From positions 76,189-140,188 of IMG/VR virus record IMGVR_UViG_3300031576_001126: a stretch of DNA of 64,000 nt, one strand, 5' to 3'. Positions 36,537 through 63,789 of this stretch are shown piece after piece. The notes under the pieces are model-generated. The model was not told where the DNA came from. It searched no databases and saw only the letters and a program-made list of their open reading frames with translations. The first letter of the stretch is position 1. Each line of letters begins with the position of its first letter. Source of the DNA: a virus. The position numbers and the translations under genes were made by a program.

Positions 36537-36716
36537 ATGTTTATAAAAAGAGCCATAACAAAAAATGCTATACTTGGAGTTATTGACACCAAGCGTGAAA
36601 ACAGTGATAATTTGAGCGTATGTTGTTCGGTATGCGGAAAATGCTTTAAAAACACTTCCGAAGCCCAGAGTTGCAAGCGAGAAGATTGTCCTTTTTCATG
36701 TCGAAGCCAAAAATAA
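36537..36716 (+). CDS. 59-aa Cys-rich protein (absent from the ORF track)
   Basis: MFIKRAITKNAILGVIDTKRENSDNLSVCCSVCGKCFKNTSEAQSCKREDCPFSCRSQK; fills the gap between two genes and overlaps the helicase start. Confidence 0.55.
   Translation: MFIKRAITKNAILGVIDTKRENSDNLSVCCSVCGKCFKNTSEAQSCKREDCPFSCRSQK
36583..36611 (+). promoter_or_regulatory. Sigma70-type promoter candidate upstream of the helicase/replication operon
   Basis: TTGACA (36583-36588), 17-nt spacer, GATAAT (36606-36611). Confidence 0.45.
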
Positions 36717-38269
36717 AAATCAATAATATTTGGTCAACTATAGAAGATATATCTGAAGAAGCCATTGTTTTTTTATATAATGAGCTTGCTTTTGATATCC
36801 CTGGCGCATATTTCGCAAAACAAAAGAATCCATACCTTAAAAATTGGGATGGGAAAAAAAGACTTTCCAAAAAAATAAAAGAAAGAAACGGATTAGTATT
36901 TTTAACTGGTCTTGTAGCCAGAGTGATTACTCTTTTACACGAACGATTTAATTTGATTTGCGATTTAGAAGACGAAAGAAAAAAACCAGATAAAACTTTA
37001 TTTTATGACTGGAATGAATTGGATTTTGAATTAAGAAAATATCAAATAGACGTTGTAAAAGAATCTCTTAAAAAGAGTCGTGGGACCTTGGAAATGGCAA
37101 CTGGATCTGGCAAGACGGTCGTTGCTTCAAAAATTATTCAAGAATTAGGTGTTTCACCTTTTATTTTTTACGTTACAACTCACGAATTACTTTATCAAGC
37201 AAAAGAAAGATTGGAAGCCAGTATAAAAAATTTAGAAGTCGGCATAATAGGAAATGGTTTGTGTGAAATAAAAGATATTAATGTTATGACGATTCAAACA
37301 GCAACAACAGTATATGGTAAAAACATTTTAAAAGATCTTAAAAAATTCAAACCAGAAGATTTTGATTCAGACATAATCTCTTCTTGGAAAAAAGAAGATT
37401 TATCTCATATAAAAAAATTAGACAAGGCTCATAAAATAAAAGAATTAATAGAGAATTGCAAAGGAATGTATGCCGACGAAGCGCATCACGTTCCCTCTCA
37501 AACAGCGCATGATATTATTACAAAATCAACAAATTGCTATCATATTTTTGGGGGATCGGCAACACCATATAGAACTGATAATGCTGACCTCATAATAGAA
37601 GGTTTGTTTGGGAGGAAAATTTGCAAAATAACAGCTTCGGCCCTAATTAAAATGGGATATTTAATGAAGCCTGAAATATACTTTATAAAACTTAAAAACA
37701 AACATAAAAGTTGTATAAACTATCAAGAGGATGTTAAATATAATATTATAGAAAATGAAGAAAGAAACAATCACATAAAACAGATATCTGAATTTTTAAG
37801 ATCTCAGGATTTGTCTGTTTTGATATTAGTAAGATTAATTGAACATGGAAAAACTTTAAATAAAATGATTTACGGTTCTGAATTTATACATGGCAGTATA
37901 AGTAAAAACAAAAGATCACAAGAAATAAAAGATCTTAATTCTGGCAAAAATAGCATATTAATTGGTTCCGTGCTTGCAGACGAAGGGCTTGACATTCCTA
38001 CTCTTAATTGTGTTATCCTTGCTGGAGGGGGAGAAAGTCCAATAAAATGCAAACAAAGAGTAGGGAGAGCTATTAGAAAATCAAAAGGTAAATCAAAAAG
38101 TATAATTTTTGATTTCATGGATGTTGGCAAATACACAAAAAAACATTCTAAAGCTAGAATAAATATATTAAAGGACGAAGAAGAGTTTGTTGTTAGAGAA
38201 ATAGATTCTTATCCTTATAAAGGCGATTTTGAATTAAAGAGAGATTTTTCTGCAAACGAATTGTTTTAG
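36698..38269 (+). CDS. Superfamily 2 DNA helicase (UvsW/XPB/ResIII-like)
   Basis: ATGSGKT, DEAHH, SATP, EGLDIP, QRVGR. ATG at 36698 preferred over TTG at 36671. Confidence 0.9.
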   Translation: MSKPKIKINNIWSTIEDISEEAIVFLYNELAFDIPGAYFAKQKNPYLKNWDGKKRLSKKIKERNGLVFLTGLVARVITLLHERFNLICDLEDERKKPDKTLFYDWNELDFELRKYQIDVVKESLKKSRGTLEMATGSGKTVVASKIIQELGVSPFIFYVTTHELLYQAKERLEASIKNLEVGIIGNGLCEIKDINVMTIQTATTVYGKNILKDLKKFKPEDFDSDIISSWKKEDLSHIKKLDKAHKIKELIENCKGMYADEAHHVPSQTAHDIITKSTNCYHIFGGSATPYRTDNADLIIEGLFGRKICKITASALIKMGYLMKPEIYFIKLKNKHKSCINYQEDVKYNIIENEERNNHIKQISEFLRSQDLSVLILVRLIEHGKTLNKMIYGSEFIHGSISKNKRSQEIKDLNSGKNSILIGSVLADEGLDIPTLNCVILAGGGESPIKCKQRVGRAIRKSKGKSKSIIFDFMDVGKYTKKHSKARINILKDEEEFVVREIDSYPYKGDFELKRDFSANELF

Positions 38270-38281
38270 AAAAATTTAAAT

Positions 38282-39400
38282 ATGTCTAAAAAAAATACAA
38301 AAAATTATTATAATATACTGGGTGTTTCTAAAGACGCATCTTTAGATGACATAAAAAAAGCCTTCAAAAACTTGGCTAAAAAATATCATCCAGATAAAAC
38401 CGGAGAAGACAAAGACTCTGAAGAAAAATTTAAAGAAATAAGCGAAGCATATGAAAATCTTGCCGATCCTCAAAAAAGATCAAGATATGATTCAATTAGG
38501 TCTCCTAGAAAATTTCCTCATTTTAAAGGGGGTTTCGATCCATTTGCTGGTGATTTTGATCCTTTTGATGATTTGAGAAAATTTAGTGGGTTTGGAAGAC
38601 AAAAAAACGCTAAAGAAGAATTAACAGCTTATGTAAATATAGAAATAGATTTAGAAAAAATATGTTCCGGCACAGAAGAAAACATATTTTACGACAGGTG
38701 GTTTTGTTGTGATGAATGTAATGGTAAAAAAACATTAAACAAAAACTCTATAATTATGTGTCGTGAATGTAATGGTCGTGGACAAATTTTAATGATGAAT
38801 GGTCCGTTGACTATTTTTTCAACCTGTCCAAGGTGTTATGGAAAATGCGAAATTATATCAGATCCATGCAAAAAATGCAATGGAAAAGGTTTTTTTGTTA
38901 AAAAACAAGAGTTAAAAAATATAAAAATACCAAAAGGGATAAGCGAAAATAATGTAATTAAAATAGACAAAATGGGACATTATAACGAAAATGGTTTGTG
39001 TGGGGATTTGATTATTCAAATTTCTTATAAAGATCATCCTGTTTTTAAAAAATCTTTAGGCAAAATGGTAGCGAGAGATTGTGATGTTTTCTTTGAATGT
39101 TTTGTTCCTTTACATGTGGCCATTTTAGGAGGAAAAATAAAAATTCCAACATTACAAGGTCCTTGTGATTTAGAAATTCAATCCGGATTAAAACATGGTT
39201 CCATTTTTATACTTAAAAACAAAGGACTATATAAAATTAACAGGGGTGTTTCTGATTCTTTTGGAGATCAAATAAATATATTAAATATTGAAAATCCAAA
39301 AAACATAAGTGACAAATTAAAAGAGGCTTTATTAGATATAAAAGAAGAAGAATATATAAACTATACAGAAAAAGTTAATAAAAAAGCAAACAAAATATGA
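38282..39400 (+). CDS. dnaJ: Class A DnaJ co-chaperone
   Basis: J-domain YYNILGV...KYHPDK, short G/F region, four CxxCxG repeats, C-terminal AILGG...PTLQG. Confidence 0.93.
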   Translation: MSKKNTKNYYNILGVSKDASLDDIKKAFKNLAKKYHPDKTGEDKDSEEKFKEISEAYENLADPQKRSRYDSIRSPRKFPHFKGGFDPFAGDFDPFDDLRKFSGFGRQKNAKEELTAYVNIEIDLEKICSGTEENIFYDRWFCCDECNGKKTLNKNSIIMCRECNGRGQILMMNGPLTIFSTCPRCYGKCEIISDPCKKCNGKGFFVKKQELKNIKIPKGISENNVIKIDKMGHYNENGLCGDLIIQISYKDHPVFKKSLGKMVARDCDVFFECFVPLHVAILGGKIKIPTLQGPCDLEIQSGLKHGSIFILKNKGLYKINRGVSDSFGDQINILNIENPKNISDKLKEALLDIKEEEYINYTEKVNKKANKI

Positions 39401-41169
39401 AAACCACAGATATTTTATTAGAACTAATACTAAACGAAGTTTTTAAACACAAAAATTTAAAAATAGGAGATGTTGAACTCGATATTTCTGTTGCAGATCT
39501 TTATATTCTTGCCGATAGAAAAAAAACAAAAAGATCAATTAATTTAGCTTTAAAAAAACTAGCCGACGTTGGTATGTTACAATATAATCCAGAAGAAAAA
39601 AAGAAAACAAAAAATTTAATACTTAAAAATGTAATATGTTTTTCTAAAAAAATAAAAGATGATGTGTTTTTTGACTTTGATAATACTTTTTATGATTACT
39701 TTTCAAATTTTGATGAAACAAATATCTTGGATAGTATAAAGTGTCAAAATAATAAAAACACAATATTAAAAAAATATATAAATTTTATTTATGAAATATC
39801 TCTCGAATTTTCAAACAAGAGGAGATGTTTTAAAAACGCAGGGTTGTTTTCAGACTTCATTGTGATAGATTTTCCTACTAAAGTTAACATTCAAACTGCG
39901 AAAGATTTTGCCAATTCAACAAAATGTTTCACCAAAAGTTTCGCAGATTTGCATATAAGATCTGAAAATTTTATATCATTCAAACTGCGAAAGATTTTGC
40001 CAATTCAACCAAAAGTTTCGCAGATCTGCGAAAGATTTGCCAAAATTTGCGAAAACTGGAAGACAATGTACGTACATAAGAATATACTATTATCTGAAAA
40101 TAGAAACAATGTACAAATTCCTTGTACGTACATTGTCTCCGAAATTTCGCAGATTGATTCAAAAGTTTCTCAGATTAAGAGGAAGCAAAAAATGGAGAAA
40201 GAAAACTTTATTGGAAAATTTAAACCTAATTATAAAAAAAATTCAAAAGATTCAAAAGTTTTATTTGTTTCAAAATCACAATCTATAAATATAGAAGACA
40301 TATTAGATGACAAGGAAGTTGTCAGAGGAATAGAAAATATGCCTTTGTCGGCTTATAAAGCTAGACAATGGATGGATTTAATATATAAACTTCATAAAAA
40401 AATAAGAGGATATAATTATAACTCAGGTATCCTCGTAGATAGTCAAGCCCTAACGGGGAAGATTTATCCGCTTGTTTTTGAAAAATTTGAATTTAGTGCT
40501 ATTGATTTTAAAGAATATATAGAAGAACTAATAGAACAGAAAGATTATTCTGGAAAGTTTGTTAAATTTATTGTGGGTTTTATAGGATCTAATGATTCAA
40601 GGATAAATGATATTGAACGATTTATAGGGCACAAGAAGAGGCTTCGTGAAGAAGATATTTTCGAGGATAAAATCTACCTACCTCATTGGCCCTTGACAGC
40701 AGATAACGATGACTTGTATACTGTTATTAATAGGATGCCGAAAAGGCCATTGGCTATCCTTTATAATTATGGTATAGTTTTGTATTATAGATTTTTGCAA
40801 GCAAAAAACGCTTTTTCTATGGAAGAAGCCATTGATGAAATTAGTCGAATTTTCATCAAAGAATTTATCGAATTAAAAATGATAGACTCACATCCAGATG
40901 TCGTTGAAAAAATTCTTGCGGGAATTGCGAAGAATACTCTACTATGGGAGCCATACCCTGAAAACGAAGCAGGGAAATCGACATATTTAAAACATATTGA
41001 CTGGAGAAAATCATTTTATAAGATTTTTTCGGATAAAAAATTCAAAATAACATCTTCCCTTTGGTGGAAAGATCATCAAAACAACAATTTAAACAAAATT
41101 CCAGCAGTTGACCTGATGTTTAAAAAAAGAAACAAAAATGCATTACATATCGAAAATCTCGTAGTTTAA
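39397..41169 (+). CDS. Hypothetical protein, candidate replication initiator (N-terminal wHTH-like) carrying internal DNA repeats
   Basis: SVADL...KRSINLALKKLADVGML resembles a winged HTH; iteron-like repeats in mid-gene; lies upstream of DnaC-like and dnaB genes. Confidence 0.5.
   Translation: MKTTDILLELILNEVFKHKNLKIGDVELDISVADLYILADRKKTKRSINLALKKLADVGMLQYNPEEKKKTKNLILKNVICFSKKIKDDVFFDFDNTFYDYFSNFDETNILDSIKCQNNKNTILKKYINFIYEISLEFSNKRRCFKNAGLFSDFIVIDFPTKVNIQTAKDFANSTKCFTKSFADLHIRSENFISFKLRKILPIQPKVSQICERFAKICENWKTMYVHKNILLSENRNNVQIPCTYIVSEISQIDSKVSQIKRKQKMEKENFIGKFKPNYKKNSKDSKVLFVSKSQSINIEDILDDKEVVRGIENMPLSAYKARQWMDLIYKLHKKIRGYNYNSGILVDSQALTGKIYPLVFEKFEFSAIDFKEYIEELIEQKDYSGKFVKFIVGFIGSNDSRINDIERFIGHKKRLREEDIFEDKIYLPHWPLTADNDDLYTVINRMPKRPLAILYNYGIVLYYRFLQAKNAFSMEEAIDEISRIFIKEFIELKMIDSHPDVVEKILAGIAKNTLLWEPYPENEAGKSTYLKHIDWRKSFYKIFSDKKFKITSSLWWKDHQNNNLNKIPAVDLMFKKRNKNALHIENLVV
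39888..40175. repeat. Iteron-like direct and inverted repeat cluster; candidate replication origin
   Basis: Perfect 33-bp direct repeat (39888-39920, 39977-40009), 18-bp direct repeat (39931-39948, 40008-40025), 18-bp palindrome (40016-40033), 16-bp inverted repeat (40061-40076 / 40123-40138), about 8 copies of a CTGCGAAA/TTTCGCAG-type core. Confidence 0.8.
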
Positions 41170-41192: not shown

Positions 41193-42959
41193 ATGGCAGC
41201 AAAAAAAGAAAGTCAATCTGTTCCGCAAAATGAAAAAAAACTTGTAGGTAAATTTTTAACAGCCGCTCAAGAACTTACGGATTTAATAAGAAGTGTCAAG
41301 CCAGTTATTTATCTGGAAAGCAACGAGTCGGAAAAAACAATTATAAATATAATTGGTAAAATTTGTGAGGATGGGACTCATGGAGATAAGTATAAAAGAC
41401 AACTTTATATTTGGGATTCTGTTAAAGGTCTCTATTCAAGAGAAATAATAAACGGGTATCCAGAGACAACGGTTCATAACGATCAAGCTAAAGATCCGGG
41501 AGCCATATTGGATGTTATTATATCAGAGCAACCAAAAAGCGGAGATTCTTGTTATATTTTGTGTGAATTTCATCATTATTTAGAAAATTCAAATATTCAA
41601 AGAAGATTGCGTAATTTTGTGGAAGAGGTTGCCTCAAGAAAGAGAAAAAACATTATTTTACTTTGTCCAAAAAATGCTGGTATGTCTAGAGATGGAAAAA
41701 AAATTCCCATGGAACTCGAAAATATTGTTCATATTTTTGAGTGGCCCATTCCAGATAGCGAGGTTTTAAGGGATAGTGTTTGCGGCAGTTTGATTCCTTC
41801 TTTTAATCTTGCTTTTAAAAATAGGAATCCTCCTCTTCCAGAGTTGAAATTTGATGAAGATGCGATTGATGAATTGGTCAATTCTTTTAAGGGATTAACT
41901 TTGGCGGAAGTTGAATCAGCCGCTTGCTCTTCGGTTGTTAAAACACAAACTCTTGTCCCAGAAATAATTATCAAAGCAAAAAAACAAATAATTAAGAAGA
42001 GTGGTCTCGTGGAATATATAGAACCAAGGGGAGATAAATTAGATGATGTCGGTGGAGTTGAGAATTTAAAAAAATGGCTCAATGAAAGAAAACCAATTCT
42101 TTCCGAGAATGCTTTTGAGTTTGGATGTGATATGCCGAATGGAATGATGTTAATCGGTCCATGGGGAACCGGAAAATCTACCGTTGCAAAAGCTGTTATC
42201 AATGAATGGGGTCTTCCGGGATTGAGAATTGATGCTGCAAAAATCATGGACAGTTTTGTTGGGTCGTCGGAGCGCAACGCCGCCGCCGCATTAAAAGTTG
42301 CTGATTCAGTTGCACCCTGCATTTTATGGTGGGACGAAATCGATGACCTTTTTAGCGGTGCGGCATCCTCGGCGGTTAGCGATGGCGGAACAACATCCCG
42401 TGTTATTGGAACTATTTCAACATGGATGAACGAACATGAGGGATTGGTTTTTAATATATTCACTGCGAATGACGTAAGTAATAGACCACCCAAACTATTT
42501 AGAAAAGGTCGTATTGATGAAATTTTCATTGTTGATCTTCCGACAGAAGAAGAACGAAAAGAAATTTTTAATATCCATATTGAAAAACGTCGTCAAAAAG
42601 GCTATGTAAAAGAAAGACGAATTGATATCGACAAGTTTGCTAAAATGTCAAAAATGTTTTCTGGAGCGGAAATTCGAGAGGCGGTAAATACCGGCTTTAT
42701 AAGGGCATATAACGATGGAAAACGTGACATCAAAACTGCCGATATTTTTGATGCCATTAAAAATACTATCCCACTTTCATGTACAATGAAAGAAAATCTC
42801 ATTCAAATACGAAAATGGCAACAAGGTCGTGCGGTTAGAGCTTCAATTTTCTCTCCTGAAGAAATAATTGATTTTAAAGAATATAGTCAAGGCATTTTAA
42901 ATTCAAATTATAGTGTGTCTGGAGAATCCCCAGGCGCTGCTGGTTTGATTGACGTATAA
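41193..42959 (+). CDS. AAA+ ATPase, Ycf46-like
   Basis: Degenerate N-terminal AAA domain, DVGGVENLKKWL, GPWGTGKS, WWDEID, TAN, FRKGRIDE, FSGAEI. Confidence 0.85.
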   Translation: MAAKKESQSVPQNEKKLVGKFLTAAQELTDLIRSVKPVIYLESNESEKTIINIIGKICEDGTHGDKYKRQLYIWDSVKGLYSREIINGYPETTVHNDQAKDPGAILDVIISEQPKSGDSCYILCEFHHYLENSNIQRRLRNFVEEVASRKRKNIILLCPKNAGMSRDGKKIPMELENIVHIFEWPIPDSEVLRDSVCGSLIPSFNLAFKNRNPPLPELKFDEDAIDELVNSFKGLTLAEVESAACSSVVKTQTLVPEIIIKAKKQIIKKSGLVEYIEPRGDKLDDVGGVENLKKWLNERKPILSENAFEFGCDMPNGMMLIGPWGTGKSTVAKAVINEWGLPGLRIDAAKIMDSFVGSSERNAAAALKVADSVAPCILWWDEIDDLFSGAASSAVSDGGTTSRVIGTISTWMNEHEGLVFNIFTANDVSNRPPKLFRKGRIDEIFIVDLPTEEERKEIFNIHIEKRRQKGYVKERRIDIDKFAKMSKMFSGAEIREAVNTGFIRAYNDGKRDIKTADIFDAIKNTIPLSCTMKENLIQIRKWQQGRAVRASIFSPEEIIDFKEYSQGILNSNYSVSGESPGAAGLIDV

Positions 42960-43037: not shown

Positions 43038-43868
43038 ATGGAAAGCATGCAAAAGACATTTTCCTTGAGTAAAGCAATGGAAAATGACGAAAAAAAGTTT
43101 TATAGAAAAAATTCCGACATTCCTAAAGAATATTGGGCATATCGGTGGGTCAAGGTTTCCGATGGAGATAAATTTTATGATCCAGAATTCTCAACTCAAA
43201 ACAAGATAATTTCTGAAAAAACAATTTTCAATAGAACTAAAGCCAGAGATTTCGCTATAGATTATGTTAAAAATTTAGATCAAAATATTTCTTCCGGAAA
43301 GTCTATAGTATTTATGGGTGGAAAAGATTCAGGAAAAACTGTTCTTGCAACATTAATTTTAAGAGAGATTATCAACAAAACACTTGGAGACGTTTTGTTT
43401 GTGCCGTTTAGTCAACTTATCGTTGAATCAAATGTATATCTTCAAGACGATATAAAGAATTTTACAGAGAAATATACATCTCCGTTGGCTTTGTGTATTG
43501 ACGATATTGATGTAAGGAACACCTCCGAGAAGCTTAAAGAATACTTAGATCATATTTTAACTTTTAGAAGATTAAATCTTCTGCCAACAATCATTACCTC
43601 GGTGGGAGACTTTAAGGACATTAGAAAGACATGCGGAGATCCCGTATATAGATTATTATCCGATAACAAAATATATAAAATATTTAGCATAGCGTCTTTT
43701 GATGAACAAAATTATGGTATAGATTATTTTCACACAGGACACAAGGTCGATATAGATTTGTTAATCTCGGAACTTAGAAAGATAAAGATTTCCAAAGGAA
43801 AAGAAAACAAAATAAGTATGGAAGAGCTTCAATCCGTTCTTTGTAGAGCTATTCATGGACAGAGTTGA
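43038..43868 (+). CDS. DnaC/IstB-like ATPase (helicase loader)
   Basis: MGGKDSGKT, LCIDDID, R...LPTIITS; directly upstream of dnaB. Confidence 0.8.
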   Translation: MESMQKTFSLSKAMENDEKKFYRKNSDIPKEYWAYRWVKVSDGDKFYDPEFSTQNKIISEKTIFNRTKARDFAIDYVKNLDQNISSGKSIVFMGGKDSGKTVLATLILREIINKTLGDVLFVPFSQLIVESNVYLQDDIKNFTEKYTSPLALCIDDIDVRNTSEKLKEYLDHILTFRRLNLLPTIITSVGDFKDIRKTCGDPVYRLLSDNKIYKIFSIASFDEQNYGIDYFHTGHKVDIDLLISELRKIKISKGKENKISMEELQSVLCRAIHGQS

Positions 43869-45483
43869 ATTAGAAAATCAAATTATATATTTTATATTGT
43901 CTGATCCAAAACTTCTTGAATCTTCAATTTTGGAAAAGGGAATAGATGTATCTTCTTTTTCCGACGAGGGCAATAGATTAGTTTCGTCCATGGCGTTTGA
44001 CTATTTTGAAAGATTTGGAAAATGCGTTCCAAAAGAAGAGTTTGATATTTTAATAAACGATAAGCTAAATAAGAAAAAAATAACCCAGGCACAACATCAT
44101 TCCTCAATAAAAGCTTTTAAAAGAGCGTTGAATTTGGATGGAGAAATTACTCCTGTGCAATTTGACCGAATTGCTTATGATTTGGTGTCTGTCGTTAAAA
44201 ACACATCAGCAAGAGAAATAATTTTAAAACATAGCGGTCTTTTAAATAGTTTCAAAACGCTGGATTATATAGATAAAATAACCGGAGAATTAGACAAATT
44301 AAGAATAAACAACGGGGAACTGGACGATATAGAGGTTCTTGATGTTTATAAAGATATAGAACTTCAAATTGAGGATTTGAAGAAAAGAAGAAACGATGAA
44401 AATGCCAGAGGAATTCCAACAGGAATAAGAACTTTAGATGAAAGATTTGTTGGCTTTGAAAAGAGATTTTTGACAATAGTTGCGGCTGTTATTAATACAG
44501 GAAAATCTACATTCGTATTAAATGTGTCAAGAAATGCCGCTGAATTTTTTGGAAAAAAAGTTTTAATCATGTCCCTCGAAATGCCAACTAAGCAATGGGC
44601 AAGAAAATATAATGCGTTGGATTGTTGGGTTCCATATAGCTACTTGCAAAGAGGAAACAAAACGCTTTTGCCAGATGATGAGTTTGAAAACTTTTGTAAG
44701 CGGCTGGAAGAAAGACGAGACAAAGGAAGGTCGGGAGAATATAGGATTATTTCTGCCCCGGCTAGTAAATATTCATTTAAAGAACTAATGAATCTTAAAG
44801 ATAAAAAACTACCAACATATAAGCCAGATATTATTTTTATAGACCAACTATCTTTAATTAAACTTCCTGGCAAAAGAGAAAAAAAAGATGAATTGGGAGA
44901 TTTGACAAAAGAAATAATAGCCTATGGATATATAAAAGATATCGCAATGGTCGCCGTGGCCCAAGCGAACAGGGCGTCAATTAGAAGAAATGGAGCTAAA
45001 AGGGAAATAGATATCAATATAGAAAACTTGGAAGACTCAAATAAAATAGGCGCAGATGCTCATAATGTTTTAGCGCTTATGTCTCCTCCGTCTTCCGGTG
45101 GCCATAGAATGTTGCTTAAAATAGTGAAACAACGAGATGGAGAAACAGGAACTTTTGAAATAGCATCAAGATTGGATTATTGTGCTATAATTGATATCGA
45201 AACAGAAGAAATTGGAAATTCATCGCTTGAAGATGGAGATCTCGTTTTTGGAGAAGAAGAAATTGATGATACGGGTCTTGATGCGATATCAGGCGAGCCA
45301 GTTAAAGCGAACCTTCCTGAAAATCTTTCAAAAGCCATAGCGATAGATTCTCGACCAAACAATGAAGATTCAATACTGAACAAAAGCGCAGAAGAGTTAA
45401 AGAAACAAAAGAATCCATTTGCCGCAGATGACGATTACGATATTATAAGAACAAATGAGATGGAAGATATTTTTAATGAGTAA
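43855..45483 (+). CDS. dnaB: Replicative DNA helicase, DnaB family
   Basis: GIPTGIRTLD, AAVINTGKST, SLEM, IDQL, AVAQANR, KQRDG. Confidence 0.9.
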   Translation: MDRVELENQIIYFILSDPKLLESSILEKGIDVSSFSDEGNRLVSSMAFDYFERFGKCVPKEEFDILINDKLNKKKITQAQHHSSIKAFKRALNLDGEITPVQFDRIAYDLVSVVKNTSAREIILKHSGLLNSFKTLDYIDKITGELDKLRINNGELDDIEVLDVYKDIELQIEDLKKRRNDENARGIPTGIRTLDERFVGFEKRFLTIVAAVINTGKSTFVLNVSRNAAEFFGKKVLIMSLEMPTKQWARKYNALDCWVPYSYLQRGNKTLLPDDEFENFCKRLEERRDKGRSGEYRIISAPASKYSFKELMNLKDKKLPTYKPDIIFIDQLSLIKLPGKREKKDELGDLTKEIIAYGYIKDIAMVAVAQANRASIRRNGAKREIDINIENLEDSNKIGADAHNVLALMSPPSSGGHRMLLKIVKQRDGETGTFEIASRLDYCAIIDIETEEIGNSSLEDGDLVFGEEEIDDTGLDAISGEPVKANLPENLSKAIAIDSRPNNEDSILNKSAEELKKQKNPFAADDDYDIIRTNEMEDIFNE

Positions 45484-46639
45484 AGAAGATAATAGTGTCT
45501 TTTATCTTAATATTTTTGATGAAATAAGATCAACTGTCTCTCTAGTTAAAGAGATGGAGAGCCATGGAATAAAATTTGTGTCAGGGGGGAGAGGGAGGCT
45601 CAAATGTTGTTGTCCTTTTCCAGATCACAAAGACGGAACACCATCATGTTTTGTCTGGACAAACAATGATCCTGAGTCATTTTATTGTTTTGGATGTAAA
45701 AAAAGTGGCAGTGTTATTGATTTTACAATGTATTATGGAGAAAACGGGCAAGATCAACTAACCTTACGTAGCTCTATAGAATATCTTATAAAAAAACATG
45801 ATATAAAGTCAGACAGATTTGATATAGAAAAAATAAAAAATATTCCAGACAAGTATAAAAAAAATGAGCCTCCGTTTTTTTCAAAAACATTACTAATTTC
45901 AGAAGACATTAGAGATTTTATTTCACAATCTATAGATCTCGATAGAGATTTTAAGGAAATTTCCCATTATACAAGAAATATAGATTTGTCTCTGTTTAAT
46001 AGAGATTATCAGTCAATTGGGGTATATGAAGAAATAATAAGCAAAGCCCTTAAAAGTGTGAGAAAAAAAGATTTGATATTTGGTCTTAAAAAAGAATGTT
46101 TAAATTGTCATCTTTGTGATTTGAGGTTGGGTTGTAAGAAGCCAATTTTTGGAAATGGAAACTATTCGGCAAAAATTTTAATACTTTGGGATTCTCCTCA
46201 TGAATTTGAAAACAAACAAGATAAATTAATCGACTATGGGATAGGTAAAATTTTACAAGATAAAATTGTCAAAAATAAAATAGATATCTCTCTTTTTTGG
46301 TTTGCAACATGCATTTGTTGCTCATCAAAAAGAAATCCCAAGACAGAAGAAGTAAATATGTGTATAAAATCTTATTTATCAAAAGTGTTGAATTGTATTG
46401 ATATAAAAAGTATAATAATTATTGGAGAAAAAACAAAAGATTTTTTATTGCCCAATATGATTGAGGAAGAATACAATTCTATGTGTTGGTCAAAAAGGTC
46501 CGTGACTTTGTTTGGGAAAAGTTATTCTGTGGCTTTTTTGCCTGAGACTTCTCGTATTTTTAACAAAAGTCAGGCTCAAAATTTGTTGGAGCCGAAATTT
46601 GTTGCGCTTTTGAACGAAGCCGTGATATCTTTGTCTTGA
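45476..46639 (+). CDS. Primase CHC2 zinc-binding domain fused to a degenerate family-4 uracil-DNA-glycosylase-like domain
   Basis: CPFPDHKDGTPS...FYCFGCKKSGSVIDF (DnaG zinc-binding domain); C-terminal CHLCDLR...PIFGNGNYSAKILILWDSP...C...NPKTEEVNMC (UDG4-like Fe-S pattern). ATG at 45476. Confidence 0.8.
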   Translation: MSKEDNSVFYLNIFDEIRSTVSLVKEMESHGIKFVSGGRGRLKCCCPFPDHKDGTPSCFVWTNNDPESFYCFGCKKSGSVIDFTMYYGENGQDQLTLRSSIEYLIKKHDIKSDRFDIEKIKNIPDKYKKNEPPFFSKTLLISEDIRDFISQSIDLDRDFKEISHYTRNIDLSLFNRDYQSIGVYEEIISKALKSVRKKDLIFGLKKECLNCHLCDLRLGCKKPIFGNGNYSAKILILWDSPHEFENKQDKLIDYGIGKILQDKIVKNKIDISLFWFATCICCSSKRNPKTEEVNMCIKSYLSKVLNCIDIKSIIIIGEKTKDFLLPNMIEEEYNSMCWSKRSVTLFGKSYSVAFLPETSRIFNKSQAQNLLEPKFVALLNEAVISLS

Positions 46640-63137: not shown

Positions 63138-63733
63138 CATGTTCTTTTTGCAATAAAAAACACGAATTTGTAGTTTCTAAAATTAGGAATGGGCATTTTA
63201 TCCAAGTAGCGCTTTGTGATGATCATGCTTCCGATTTCGAAAATCCATTTGTAAAAAAGATGAAAGAGATAGAAGCCAAAACTGATTATTTGGTTTCTTG
63301 TGGTCATTCGCATAAGGATATTGTCGAATTTTCCAGAGACAATGCAAACAAAAAATGTCTTAAGTGCAAAATGCCCGTGGAAGTTTTCCTTGCTACTGGC
63401 ATTCCTTCTTGTGATTCTTGTTATACCTCGTTTTTCGCTAATGTAATATTGTTTCTTGAAAATTATAATGAAATATATGGATCCCCAAATTTTGAAGAAG
63501 ACAGTAAAAAAGATAAAAAAAATATTTTAGGGATGATAGAGAGCTATAAAAATAAATTGGATAAATCCATTAAAAAAGAAGATTTTATAAACGCCGCCAA
63601 ATTAAGGGATGTAATAAGCCGACTTTCGAGCAAAGAAACTCAAGAAACTCAAGAAACTCAAGAAACTCAAGAAACTCAAGAAACTCAAGAAACTCAAGAA
63701 ACTCAAGAAACTCAAGAAACTCAAGAAACTTAA
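63134..63733 (+). CDS. mcsA: McsA-like protein-arginine-kinase activator (Zn fingers plus UvrB/C motif) with a QET repeat tail
   Basis: CSFC...NG...LCDDH, CLKC.M...G..SCDSCY..F, KEDFINAAKLRDVI. Confidence 0.8.
   Translation: MTCSFCNKKHEFVVSKIRNGHFIQVALCDDHASDFENPFVKKMKEIEAKTDYLVSCGHSHKDIVEFSRDNANKKCLKCKMPVEVFLATGIPSCDSCYTSFFANVILFLENYNEIYGSPNFEEDSKKDKKNILGMIESYKNKLDKSIKKEDFINAAKLRDVISRLSSKETQETQETQETQETQETQETQETQETQETQET
63641..63730 (+). repeat. Perfect 9-bp tandem repeat (CAAGAAACT)x10 encoding (QET)10
   Basis: Ten exact copies, flanked by variant units AAAGAAACT and TAAGAAATT (the latter contains the stop). Confidence 0.97.
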
Positions 63734-63789
63734 GAAATTGAAAATGGGAAAGAATCCATTAGGAAAAATGAGTCTGAAAGTTCGGCTTC

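Follow-up and report, generated by a model that had tools for sequence, protein, structure and literature searches.

We report here on a cluster of repeats (39885-40175) that lies inside an open reading frame (ORF) of 590 amino acids (aa), encoding the protein P0001. The window, i.e. the whole stretch of DNA analysed, is the final 64 kb (64,000 nucleotides) of the 140,188-bp viral contig IMGVR_UViG_3300031576_001126, which is classed as linear in IMG/VR. We propose, with moderate confidence, that this cluster is a replication origin, or at least an initiator-binding array, located inside the gene that encodes its initiator. Several observations lead to this proposal. The boxes of the cluster are unique and grouped, they are retained at the DNA level, and the codon signal is lost there without the appearance of a stop. 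The protein carries a winged helix at its N-terminus, its gene stands among replication genes, and the gene order is kept in a distantly related contig (L003), where neither winged helix nor boxes are present. In addition, the linkers of homologous proteins contain repeats of their own, with back-translation results pointing the same way, the cluster has AT-rich flanks, the spacing of the boxes is near whole helical turns, and phages lambda and SPP1 provide precedents. Coordinates of the features are collected in Table 1.

The initial annotation of this region had listed direct repeats, a palindrome, an inverted repeat and about eight boxes, and all of these were recovered at the same positions. 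The basic element is a box with the core CTGCGAAA. Six cores are exact (39896+, 39939-, 39985+, 40016-, 40026+ and 40145-) and two carry one mismatch (40047+ and 40166-). Alignment of the eight boxes extends the consensus to about 17 nt, namely AAT, the core, one variable base and TTTTG. The boxes are combined with larger units, including two 33-nt direct repeats and the two arms of an inverted repeat with GTAC-type palindromes, and a long imperfect inverted repeat extends from 40024 to 40175. Among the seven spacings between boxes, five (10, 21, 21, 31 and 43 bp) are at most 1 bp away from whole helical turns; this was noticed post hoc, and a spacing of the boxes by helical turns is only suggestive.

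The repeat cluster is real and strongly non-random, far beyond what is expected by chance. The exact CTGCGAAA 8-mer is present six times in the 140,188-bp contig, all six inside one 257-bp stretch, and the palindromic 10-mer TGTACGTACA is found contig-wide only at 40067 and 40123. When the contig was scanned for repeated 9-mers (sliding segments of 300 nt, reverse complement counted), the cluster reached a score of 62 for a contig mean of 2.0 (standard deviation 5.7). Only the two contig ends, which carry simple tandem repeats, scored higher, so that the cluster is the sole non-terminal repeat hotspot. Folding of the cluster as single-stranded DNA gave z = -7.8 versus shuffled sequences. No second copy of the cluster was found on the 140-kb contig, and in a scan of IMG/VR the 18-nt palindrome was present in no other record. 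The only Rfam matches were to generic-hairpin microRNAs, far under threshold, which indicates that no known RNA family is located at the cluster. Between 37 and 43 kb no 9-mer was within one mismatch of a DnaA box, and the locus does not group with origins of the DnaA/oriC type.

The presence of the boxes in both orientations and in all three codon phases argues that they are kept as DNA and not as peptide. As had been claimed from the outset, the two copies of the 33-mer, 89 bp apart, are read in two different frames, and both peptides quoted then (IQTAKDFANS and FKLRKILPIQ) were obtained. Per codon, the codon-usage log-odds score is +0.25 bits in one flanking domain and +0.20 bits in the other, and it drops to about 0 in segment 39883-40191, where frame +1 scores at least as well as frame 0. 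Over the 103 codons of this segment frame 0 is free of stops, and the other five frames have 1, 7, 5, 5 and 3 stops. The best reading is that the linker is translated, yet shaped by DNA-level rather than protein-level constraint.

P0001 consists of an N-terminal domain, the linker that hosts the cluster, and an all-helical C-terminal domain that could be modelled with confidence. Structure prediction with AlphaFold2 (AF2) bore out the winged helix-turn-helix (wHTH) suspected at the N-terminus. The best structural match of the N-domain model is the Crp/Fnr wHTH (VIA-align Z 10.5, root-mean-square deviation of 2.1 Å, 72 residues), and its nearest fold neighbours are the Crp/Fnr, MarR and ArsR regulators. 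The homologue P0004 is above the Pfam HTH_5 cutoff (23.7 bits versus 22). The AF2 topology, the structural match and the HTH_5 hit of P0004 together place the domain in the winged helix-turn-helix superfamily. In the AF2 model there is a single winged helix, and the sequence after it is of low confidence. For the C-domain, no Foldseek match was obtained in PDB at E<=0.001, the best VIA-wide Z was only 5.7, no significant match was retrieved from BFVD or the ESM Atlas, and PDB sequence profiles and NCBIfam gave nothing usable as to its function. Comparison with helicase-loader adaptors of the DnaD/DnaB_2-like type yielded a structural match of the C-domain to 2zc2 at noise level (Z 4.0), and a hit to phrog_186 (E 0.019) falls in the N-domain of P0004 and not in the C-domain. 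Neither Pfam nor PHROG nor NCBIfam has a family that takes in P0001, a tblastn comparison with 50,697 genomes of isolate phages ended without a match, and word-based protein searches returned no informative relatives. The initial description of the 39397-41169 product as an undescribed protein therefore holds.

The family came to light only when 1.84 billion representative proteins were searched exhaustively with HMMER, which gave 37 members. Five of them are full-length homologues (P0002, P0003, P0004, P0005 and P0007; 582-627 aa, 27-32% identical), and about 30 of the 37 are short forms of 280-320 aa that match only residues ~300-580. When the full-length proteins are aligned, conservation is seen in the first ~100 and the last ~290 residues; insertions and deletions abound in the hypervariable middle. 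Each of the five full-length homologues has internal peptide repeats, confined to the linker (aa ~170-260) and different in sequence from one protein to the other. The P0004 linker contains an 11-residue peptide twice, the P0002 linker a hexapeptide twice, and in P0007 a 7-residue period (xSAV) is repeated six times at residues 175-217, which corresponds to a DNA period of 21 nt, or about two helical turns. Such a 21-nt period matches the typical spacing of iterons.

To these proteins we applied a back-translation test that asks if two peptide segments can share one DNA sequence in shifted frames. With P0001 it recovered the known out-of-frame repeats of 12 and 7 codons. P0005 gave five mutually consistent runs of 7-9 codons, all located in aa 179-228, and P0003 gave a 9-codon run within the linker. 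As for the controls, the longest run in shuffled sequences averaged 7 (maximum 8-10), and the short homologues without linker gave mostly 5-7. The three-frame constraint fixes 20 of the 21 nt of the P0005 inferred box, which, with the next two bases read from the third frame, would contain a palindrome with 7-nt arms and a 4-nt gap; a 20-nt palindromic box read in three frames is thus implied for P0005, as predicted from its peptides. The box inferred for P0003 appears closely similar to the extended box of the window. Tetrapeptides able to encode the 10-mer box of the window were counted six times over the 1,085 residues of the homologues' linkers, compared with 1.3-1.5 per 1,000 elsewhere. 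The mean in shuffled linkers was 0.56, and none of 2000 shuffles reached six. At the level of peptides and back-translation, the search for different repeats at the same poorly conserved linker position in homologues, as suggested by the initial annotation, thus gave a positive answer. As a side observation, P0001, P0002 and P0007 have an S-I-N motif in common where the putative recognition helix begins (region of P0001 residues ~45-57), and one and the same 10-mer box could be encoded by the linkers of all three; in P0005 both this helix and the inferred box are different. Recognition helix and box may co-vary, as judged from this very small sample of sequences.

Three points go beyond the initial annotation: the family consists mostly of short forms, an internal Shine-Dalgarno (SD) sequence with ATG (40192) is conserved, and a class of GTAC palindromes is common to the window and L003. 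Only 0.9% of the internal in-frame ATGs on the contig have an SD as strong as the one found here. The corresponding Met266 is conserved in five of the six full-length proteins, and the short forms start at the equivalent position. Taken together, these features make it likely that a nested product, limited to the C-domain, is translated from ATG 40192; alternatively, the SD and ATG are a relic of fusion. The six full-length proteins cluster together in a tree of the C-domain (support 98/93, root uncertain), so that the winged helix and linker need to have been gained or lost just once.

Scans of viral, metagenome and genome contigs identified one true relative, the 44.9-kb Joint Genome Institute (JGI) contig L003, which encodes a short-form protein; another contig, L004, was discarded as a relative, its 41-aa match in a tail module being due to chance. 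The genes of L003 are in the order SF2 (superfamily 2) helicase, C-domain protein, AAA ATPase, DnaC-like, DnaB, primase zinc ribbon and DUF3150. Neither an N-domain homologue nor a box cluster was found in the 20.9 kb of L003 examined. Unique GTAC-rich palindromes, perfect or nearly so, are located at L003 9833-9891, 107-160 bp upstream of the C-domain start, and the GTAC palindromes of the window (within 40061-40138) are 70 and 126 bp upstream of ATG 40192. From this comparison of two loci, the boxes seem to be associated with the winged helix, and the GTAC palindromes with the C-domain gene or core module. The GTAC palindromes may be a second conserved cis element of this module.

An origin within the gene of its initiator is a known design. 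The lambda origin is located midway in gene O, where additional iterons make the O protein longer (PMC7466680). In the Bacillus phage SPP1, oriL is inside gene 38, followed by the genes for the loader (gp39) and the DnaB-type helicase (gp40), and the gene of gp38 (G38P) itself holds the direct repeats of this origin-binding protein together with an AT-rich unwinding element (PMC6316719). The locus described here resembles lambda O in that the candidate sites are between the N-terminal winged helix (residues 1-83) and the C-terminal domain (residues 266-590) of their own gene, with helicase-loading genes downstream and DnaJ nearby. The AT-rich tracts beside the sites are candidate unwinding elements as well, the very AT-rich flanks remarked upon initially amounting to 94% AT (39746-39795) and 88% AT (40215-40264). 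In lambda, O acts on four or six tandem 19-bp dyads, and the DnaJ/DnaK chaperones take part. The lambda origin, with its repeated initiator sites and AT-rich tract, codes for the linker that connects the DNA-binding winged helix at the N-terminus of O with a recruiting domain at its C-terminus. The same origin-in-gene-O design is present in Stx phages and in gene 18 of P22. In contrast to lambda O, however, the boxes of the window are in mixed orientation and irregularly spaced, and the C-domain of ~325 aa is without known fold match. The AAA ATPase is interposed, the loader is DnaC-like and not lambda-P-like, the phage encodes its own DnaB and DnaJ, and a nested internal start is probable. 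No Phage_rep_O or PHROG match was found for P0001, and only P0004 showed a sub-threshold similarity (E 0.0014) to phrog_678, annotated 'O-like', over 50 residues of the helix-turn-helix. The term 'lambda-O-type' used in the initial annotation is thus appropriate as an analogy of design, but sequence membership in any initiator family was not found.

With SPP1 G38P the locus shares repeats and an AT-rich tract inside its own gene and, downstream, loader and DnaB-type helicase genes. It differs in that P0001 has no match to the corresponding family, Phage_rep_org_N, for which P0004 reaches 16.2 bits (E 0.01) with a cutoff of 23.3, and in that no second origin copy is present in the available 140 kb. 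Iteron plasmid initiators (RepA/RepE/pi, Rep_3) use repeated sites and one inverted-repeat site for initiation versus autorepression, and nested in-frame products are made from the pi gene of R6K. A winged-helix protein and an array of short sites with one inverted-repeat site are features that the locus has in common with these plasmids. Unlike in the plasmids, the sites are inside the gene and not beside it and there is a single winged helix, and no member of the family has a Rep_3 or WH1-WH2 match. The resemblance to lambda O, G38P and Rep_3 is one of design, to be seen as analogous and not homologous. What carries the already known origin-in-initiator design here is an undescribed protein family.

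For such an origin we propose a mechanism made up of box binding, strand opening, protein recruitment and translation from an internal start as well. The N-terminal winged helix would bind the eight boxes of ~17 nt, as single half-palindromic sites and one perfect dyad. The nucleoprotein complex would strain the AT-rich tracts 39746-39795 and/or 40215-40264, leading to their opening; the first of these is the most AT-rich 50-mer within 38-43 kb. The helical C-domain would then recruit the AAA ATPase, the DnaC-like loader and the DnaB helicase, and the co-transcribed DnaJ could help to remodel the complex. The internal start at 40192 would probably also give a C-domain-only product.

A number of points weigh against an origin at this locus. 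No known initiator family was matched by sequence, the C-domain is without a recognisable helicase- or loader-binding fold, and the loader gene is not adjacent to the 590-aa ORF. In about 30 of the 37 proteins of the family there is neither winged helix nor linker, so that the conserved protein alone is not an origin binder. The boxes of the homologues are compatibilities inferred from peptides and not observed DNA. The CheckV completeness of 42% implies a genome of roughly 330 kb, in line with the very large phage announced initially; since only ~42% of this genome is in hand and 58% is missing, other repeat clusters may exist. Finally, the GC-skew inflection looked for at the locus is absent, the cumulative skew rising monotonically through it. 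The sole minimum, at contig kb 9-10, is the place of the single switch in gene orientation, and no repeats were found at this minimum around contig kb 10. The skew therefore tracks transcription and neither supports nor excludes an origin; it is uninformative because all genes past contig kb 10 are co-oriented.

As to how the locus arose, a tentative scenario, for which we have limited confidence, is that the linker is a former intergenic origin and control region captured into the ORF when a winged-helix gene was fused, once, to a conserved replisome gene of new fold. The gene would now give two products, the short one from the retained SD and ATG. Each box would be translated in whatever frame it falls, and box and recognition helix would co-evolve across the clade.

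The main rival to an origin is an operator and promoter array, which we consider rather unlikely. The winged-helix protein would then be a transcription factor that autoregulates, or that gates an internal promoter or start for the C-domain gene and the replication operon, and the linker would be a former intergenic control region that is now read through. This explanation is compatible with origin function. It would account for the regulators found as nearest fold neighbours and for the strong SD and ATG placed directly after the array. In L003 the equivalent is a promoter-bearing region upstream of the C-domain gene, with similar GTAC palindromes at 107-160 bp before the start. The single perfect dyad (40016-40033) is reminiscent of the operator sites of iteron systems, and a weak promoter-like match is present at 40060-40088. 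However, promoter-like matches are no commoner than in shuffles, and eight sites in both orientations, over 280 bp and with AT-rich flanks, are more than typical operators need. An origin would be equally or better in keeping with the location immediately 5' of the genes for loader and helicase and with the precedents of lambda O and SPP1 gene 38.

That the repeats are neutral, i.e. the result of slippage and duplications in an unconstrained disordered linker and without cis function, seems improbable. The linker is indeed hypervariable with many insertions and deletions, the two large units have the appearance of a tandem duplication of 89 bp with later divergence, and the in-frame peptide repeats of some homologues could be protein-level low complexity. 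However, a duplication of 89 bp shifts the frame and needs compensation, and inverted copies in three codon phases are not products of slippage. The 33-nt core is perfectly conserved between diverged flanks, the core is absent from the remaining 140 kb, and related boxes are inferred in proteins only ~30% identical. Even a little less probable is an array of another kind to which proteins bind, for example a centromere-like site for partition, or a signal in hairpin or cruciform form that a nuclease or recombinase would recognise. The clustered inverted repeats, with their very strong hairpin potential (z = -7.8), and the long imperfect inverted repeat 40024-40175 could be read in this way, but there are no adjoining ParA/ParB, terminase or recombinase genes, every neighbour being a replication gene. 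An in-frame insertion of a miniature mobile element with inverted repeats, or an artefact of assembly, could be imagined from the 53-nt imperfect, terminal-like inverted arms and the metagenome origin of the contig, but is very improbable given the intact reading frame, the lack of a second copy on the 140-kb contig and the five independently assembled homologues with the same long repeat-bearing linker.

To our knowledge, the origins of large uncultured phages have almost never been mapped. The locus represents a concrete and testable candidate pair of origin and initiator for one large uncultured phage lineage. It also defines a new protein family, in which a winged helix is joined to a ~325-aa helical domain without known fold relative, tied to the AAA ATPase/DnaC-like/DnaB module. 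Embedding of the origin in the initiator gene, as in lambda and SPP1, would then recur with an unrelated protein. Finally, the back-translation compatibility test offers a means to detect DNA-level repeats from protein sequences alone.

The contig has a GC content of ~33%. As initially stated, the locus is upstream of the DnaC-like and dnaB genes and is part of the helicase-loading module. The stop of dnaJ overlaps the start of the 590-aa ORF (ATGA), by which DnaJ is translationally coupled to the candidate initiator. Upstream of dnaJ the module contains, in this order, thymidylate kinase, exonuclease and SF2 helicase genes (Pfam/PHROG), and after the 590-aa ORF come the AAA ATPase, the DnaC/IstB-like loader, DnaB, the primase zinc ribbon protein and DUF3150.

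Table 1. Positions of genes, protein domains and sequence elements of the locus (window coordinates; pLDDT, predicted local distance difference test; pTM, predicted template modelling score).
Feature	Position	Strand	Remarks
DnaJ-type co-chaperone gene	38282..39400	+	Pfam DnaJ, DnaJ_CXXCXGXG, DnaJ_C; full-length: J domain, zinc-finger domain, C-terminal domain
590-aa ORF (P0001), candidate initiator	39397..41169	+	Winged helix, hypervariable linker, novel helical C-domain
N-terminal winged-helix domain, aa 1-83	39397..39645	+	AF2 topology a1-b1-a2-a3-b2-b3, pLDDT 64-81
Left AT-rich tract	39746..39795		Putative unwinding element, 94% AT
33-nt direct repeat, copy 1	39888..39920	+	With box 39896
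Array of eight boxes	39896..40173		Core CTGCGAAA, both orientations
18-mer, two copies	39931 and 40008		
33-nt direct repeat, copy 2	39977..40009	+	89 bp after copy 1, other reading frame
Perfect 18-nt palindrome	40016..40033		Two head-to-head boxes
16-nt inverted repeat, left arm	40061..40076		Includes 12-nt GTAC-type perfect palindrome (40066-40077)
Partial third copy of GTAC-type arm	40107-40116		
16-nt inverted repeat, right arm	40123..40138		Second GTAC palindrome
SD (40177-40185) and in-frame ATG (40192, Met266)	40177..40194	+	Candidate internal start, C-domain-only product
C-terminal all-helical domain, aa 266-590	40192..41169	+	Conserved core of the family; AF2 pLDDT 82, pTM 0.80
Right AT-rich tract	40215..40264		88% AT
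AAA ATPase, Cdc48/FtsH-like module	41193..42959	+	phrog_8638
DnaC/IstB-like helicase loader	43038..43868	+	
DnaB-type replicative helicase	43855..45483	+	
Protein with DnaG-type CHC2 zinc ribbon	45455..46639	+	Primase zinc-binding domain

Relatives of the AAA ATPase in isolate phages (Aeromonas HJ05, Agrobacterium JP1) were considered and set aside, their gene contexts being unrelated. An antisense ORF of 266 aa (41729-42529, -) is nested in the AAA ATPase gene; it is the sole long minus-strand ORF past contig kb 10 and is probably spurious. The two contig ends have no 12-mer in common, which gives no sign of circularity or terminal redundancy. At the contig start (bases 1-190, outside the window) an 8-nt unit is repeated ~17 times, followed by an 11-nt unit repeated ~6 times, and near the contig end (window 63633-63737) there are 11.7 copies of a 9-nt unit. 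The SF2 (ResIII) helicase of L003 (6119-9181, -; 1020 aa) contains an intein with a LAGLIDADG endonuclease, and the SF2 helicase of the window (36671-38269, 532 aa) is without intein.

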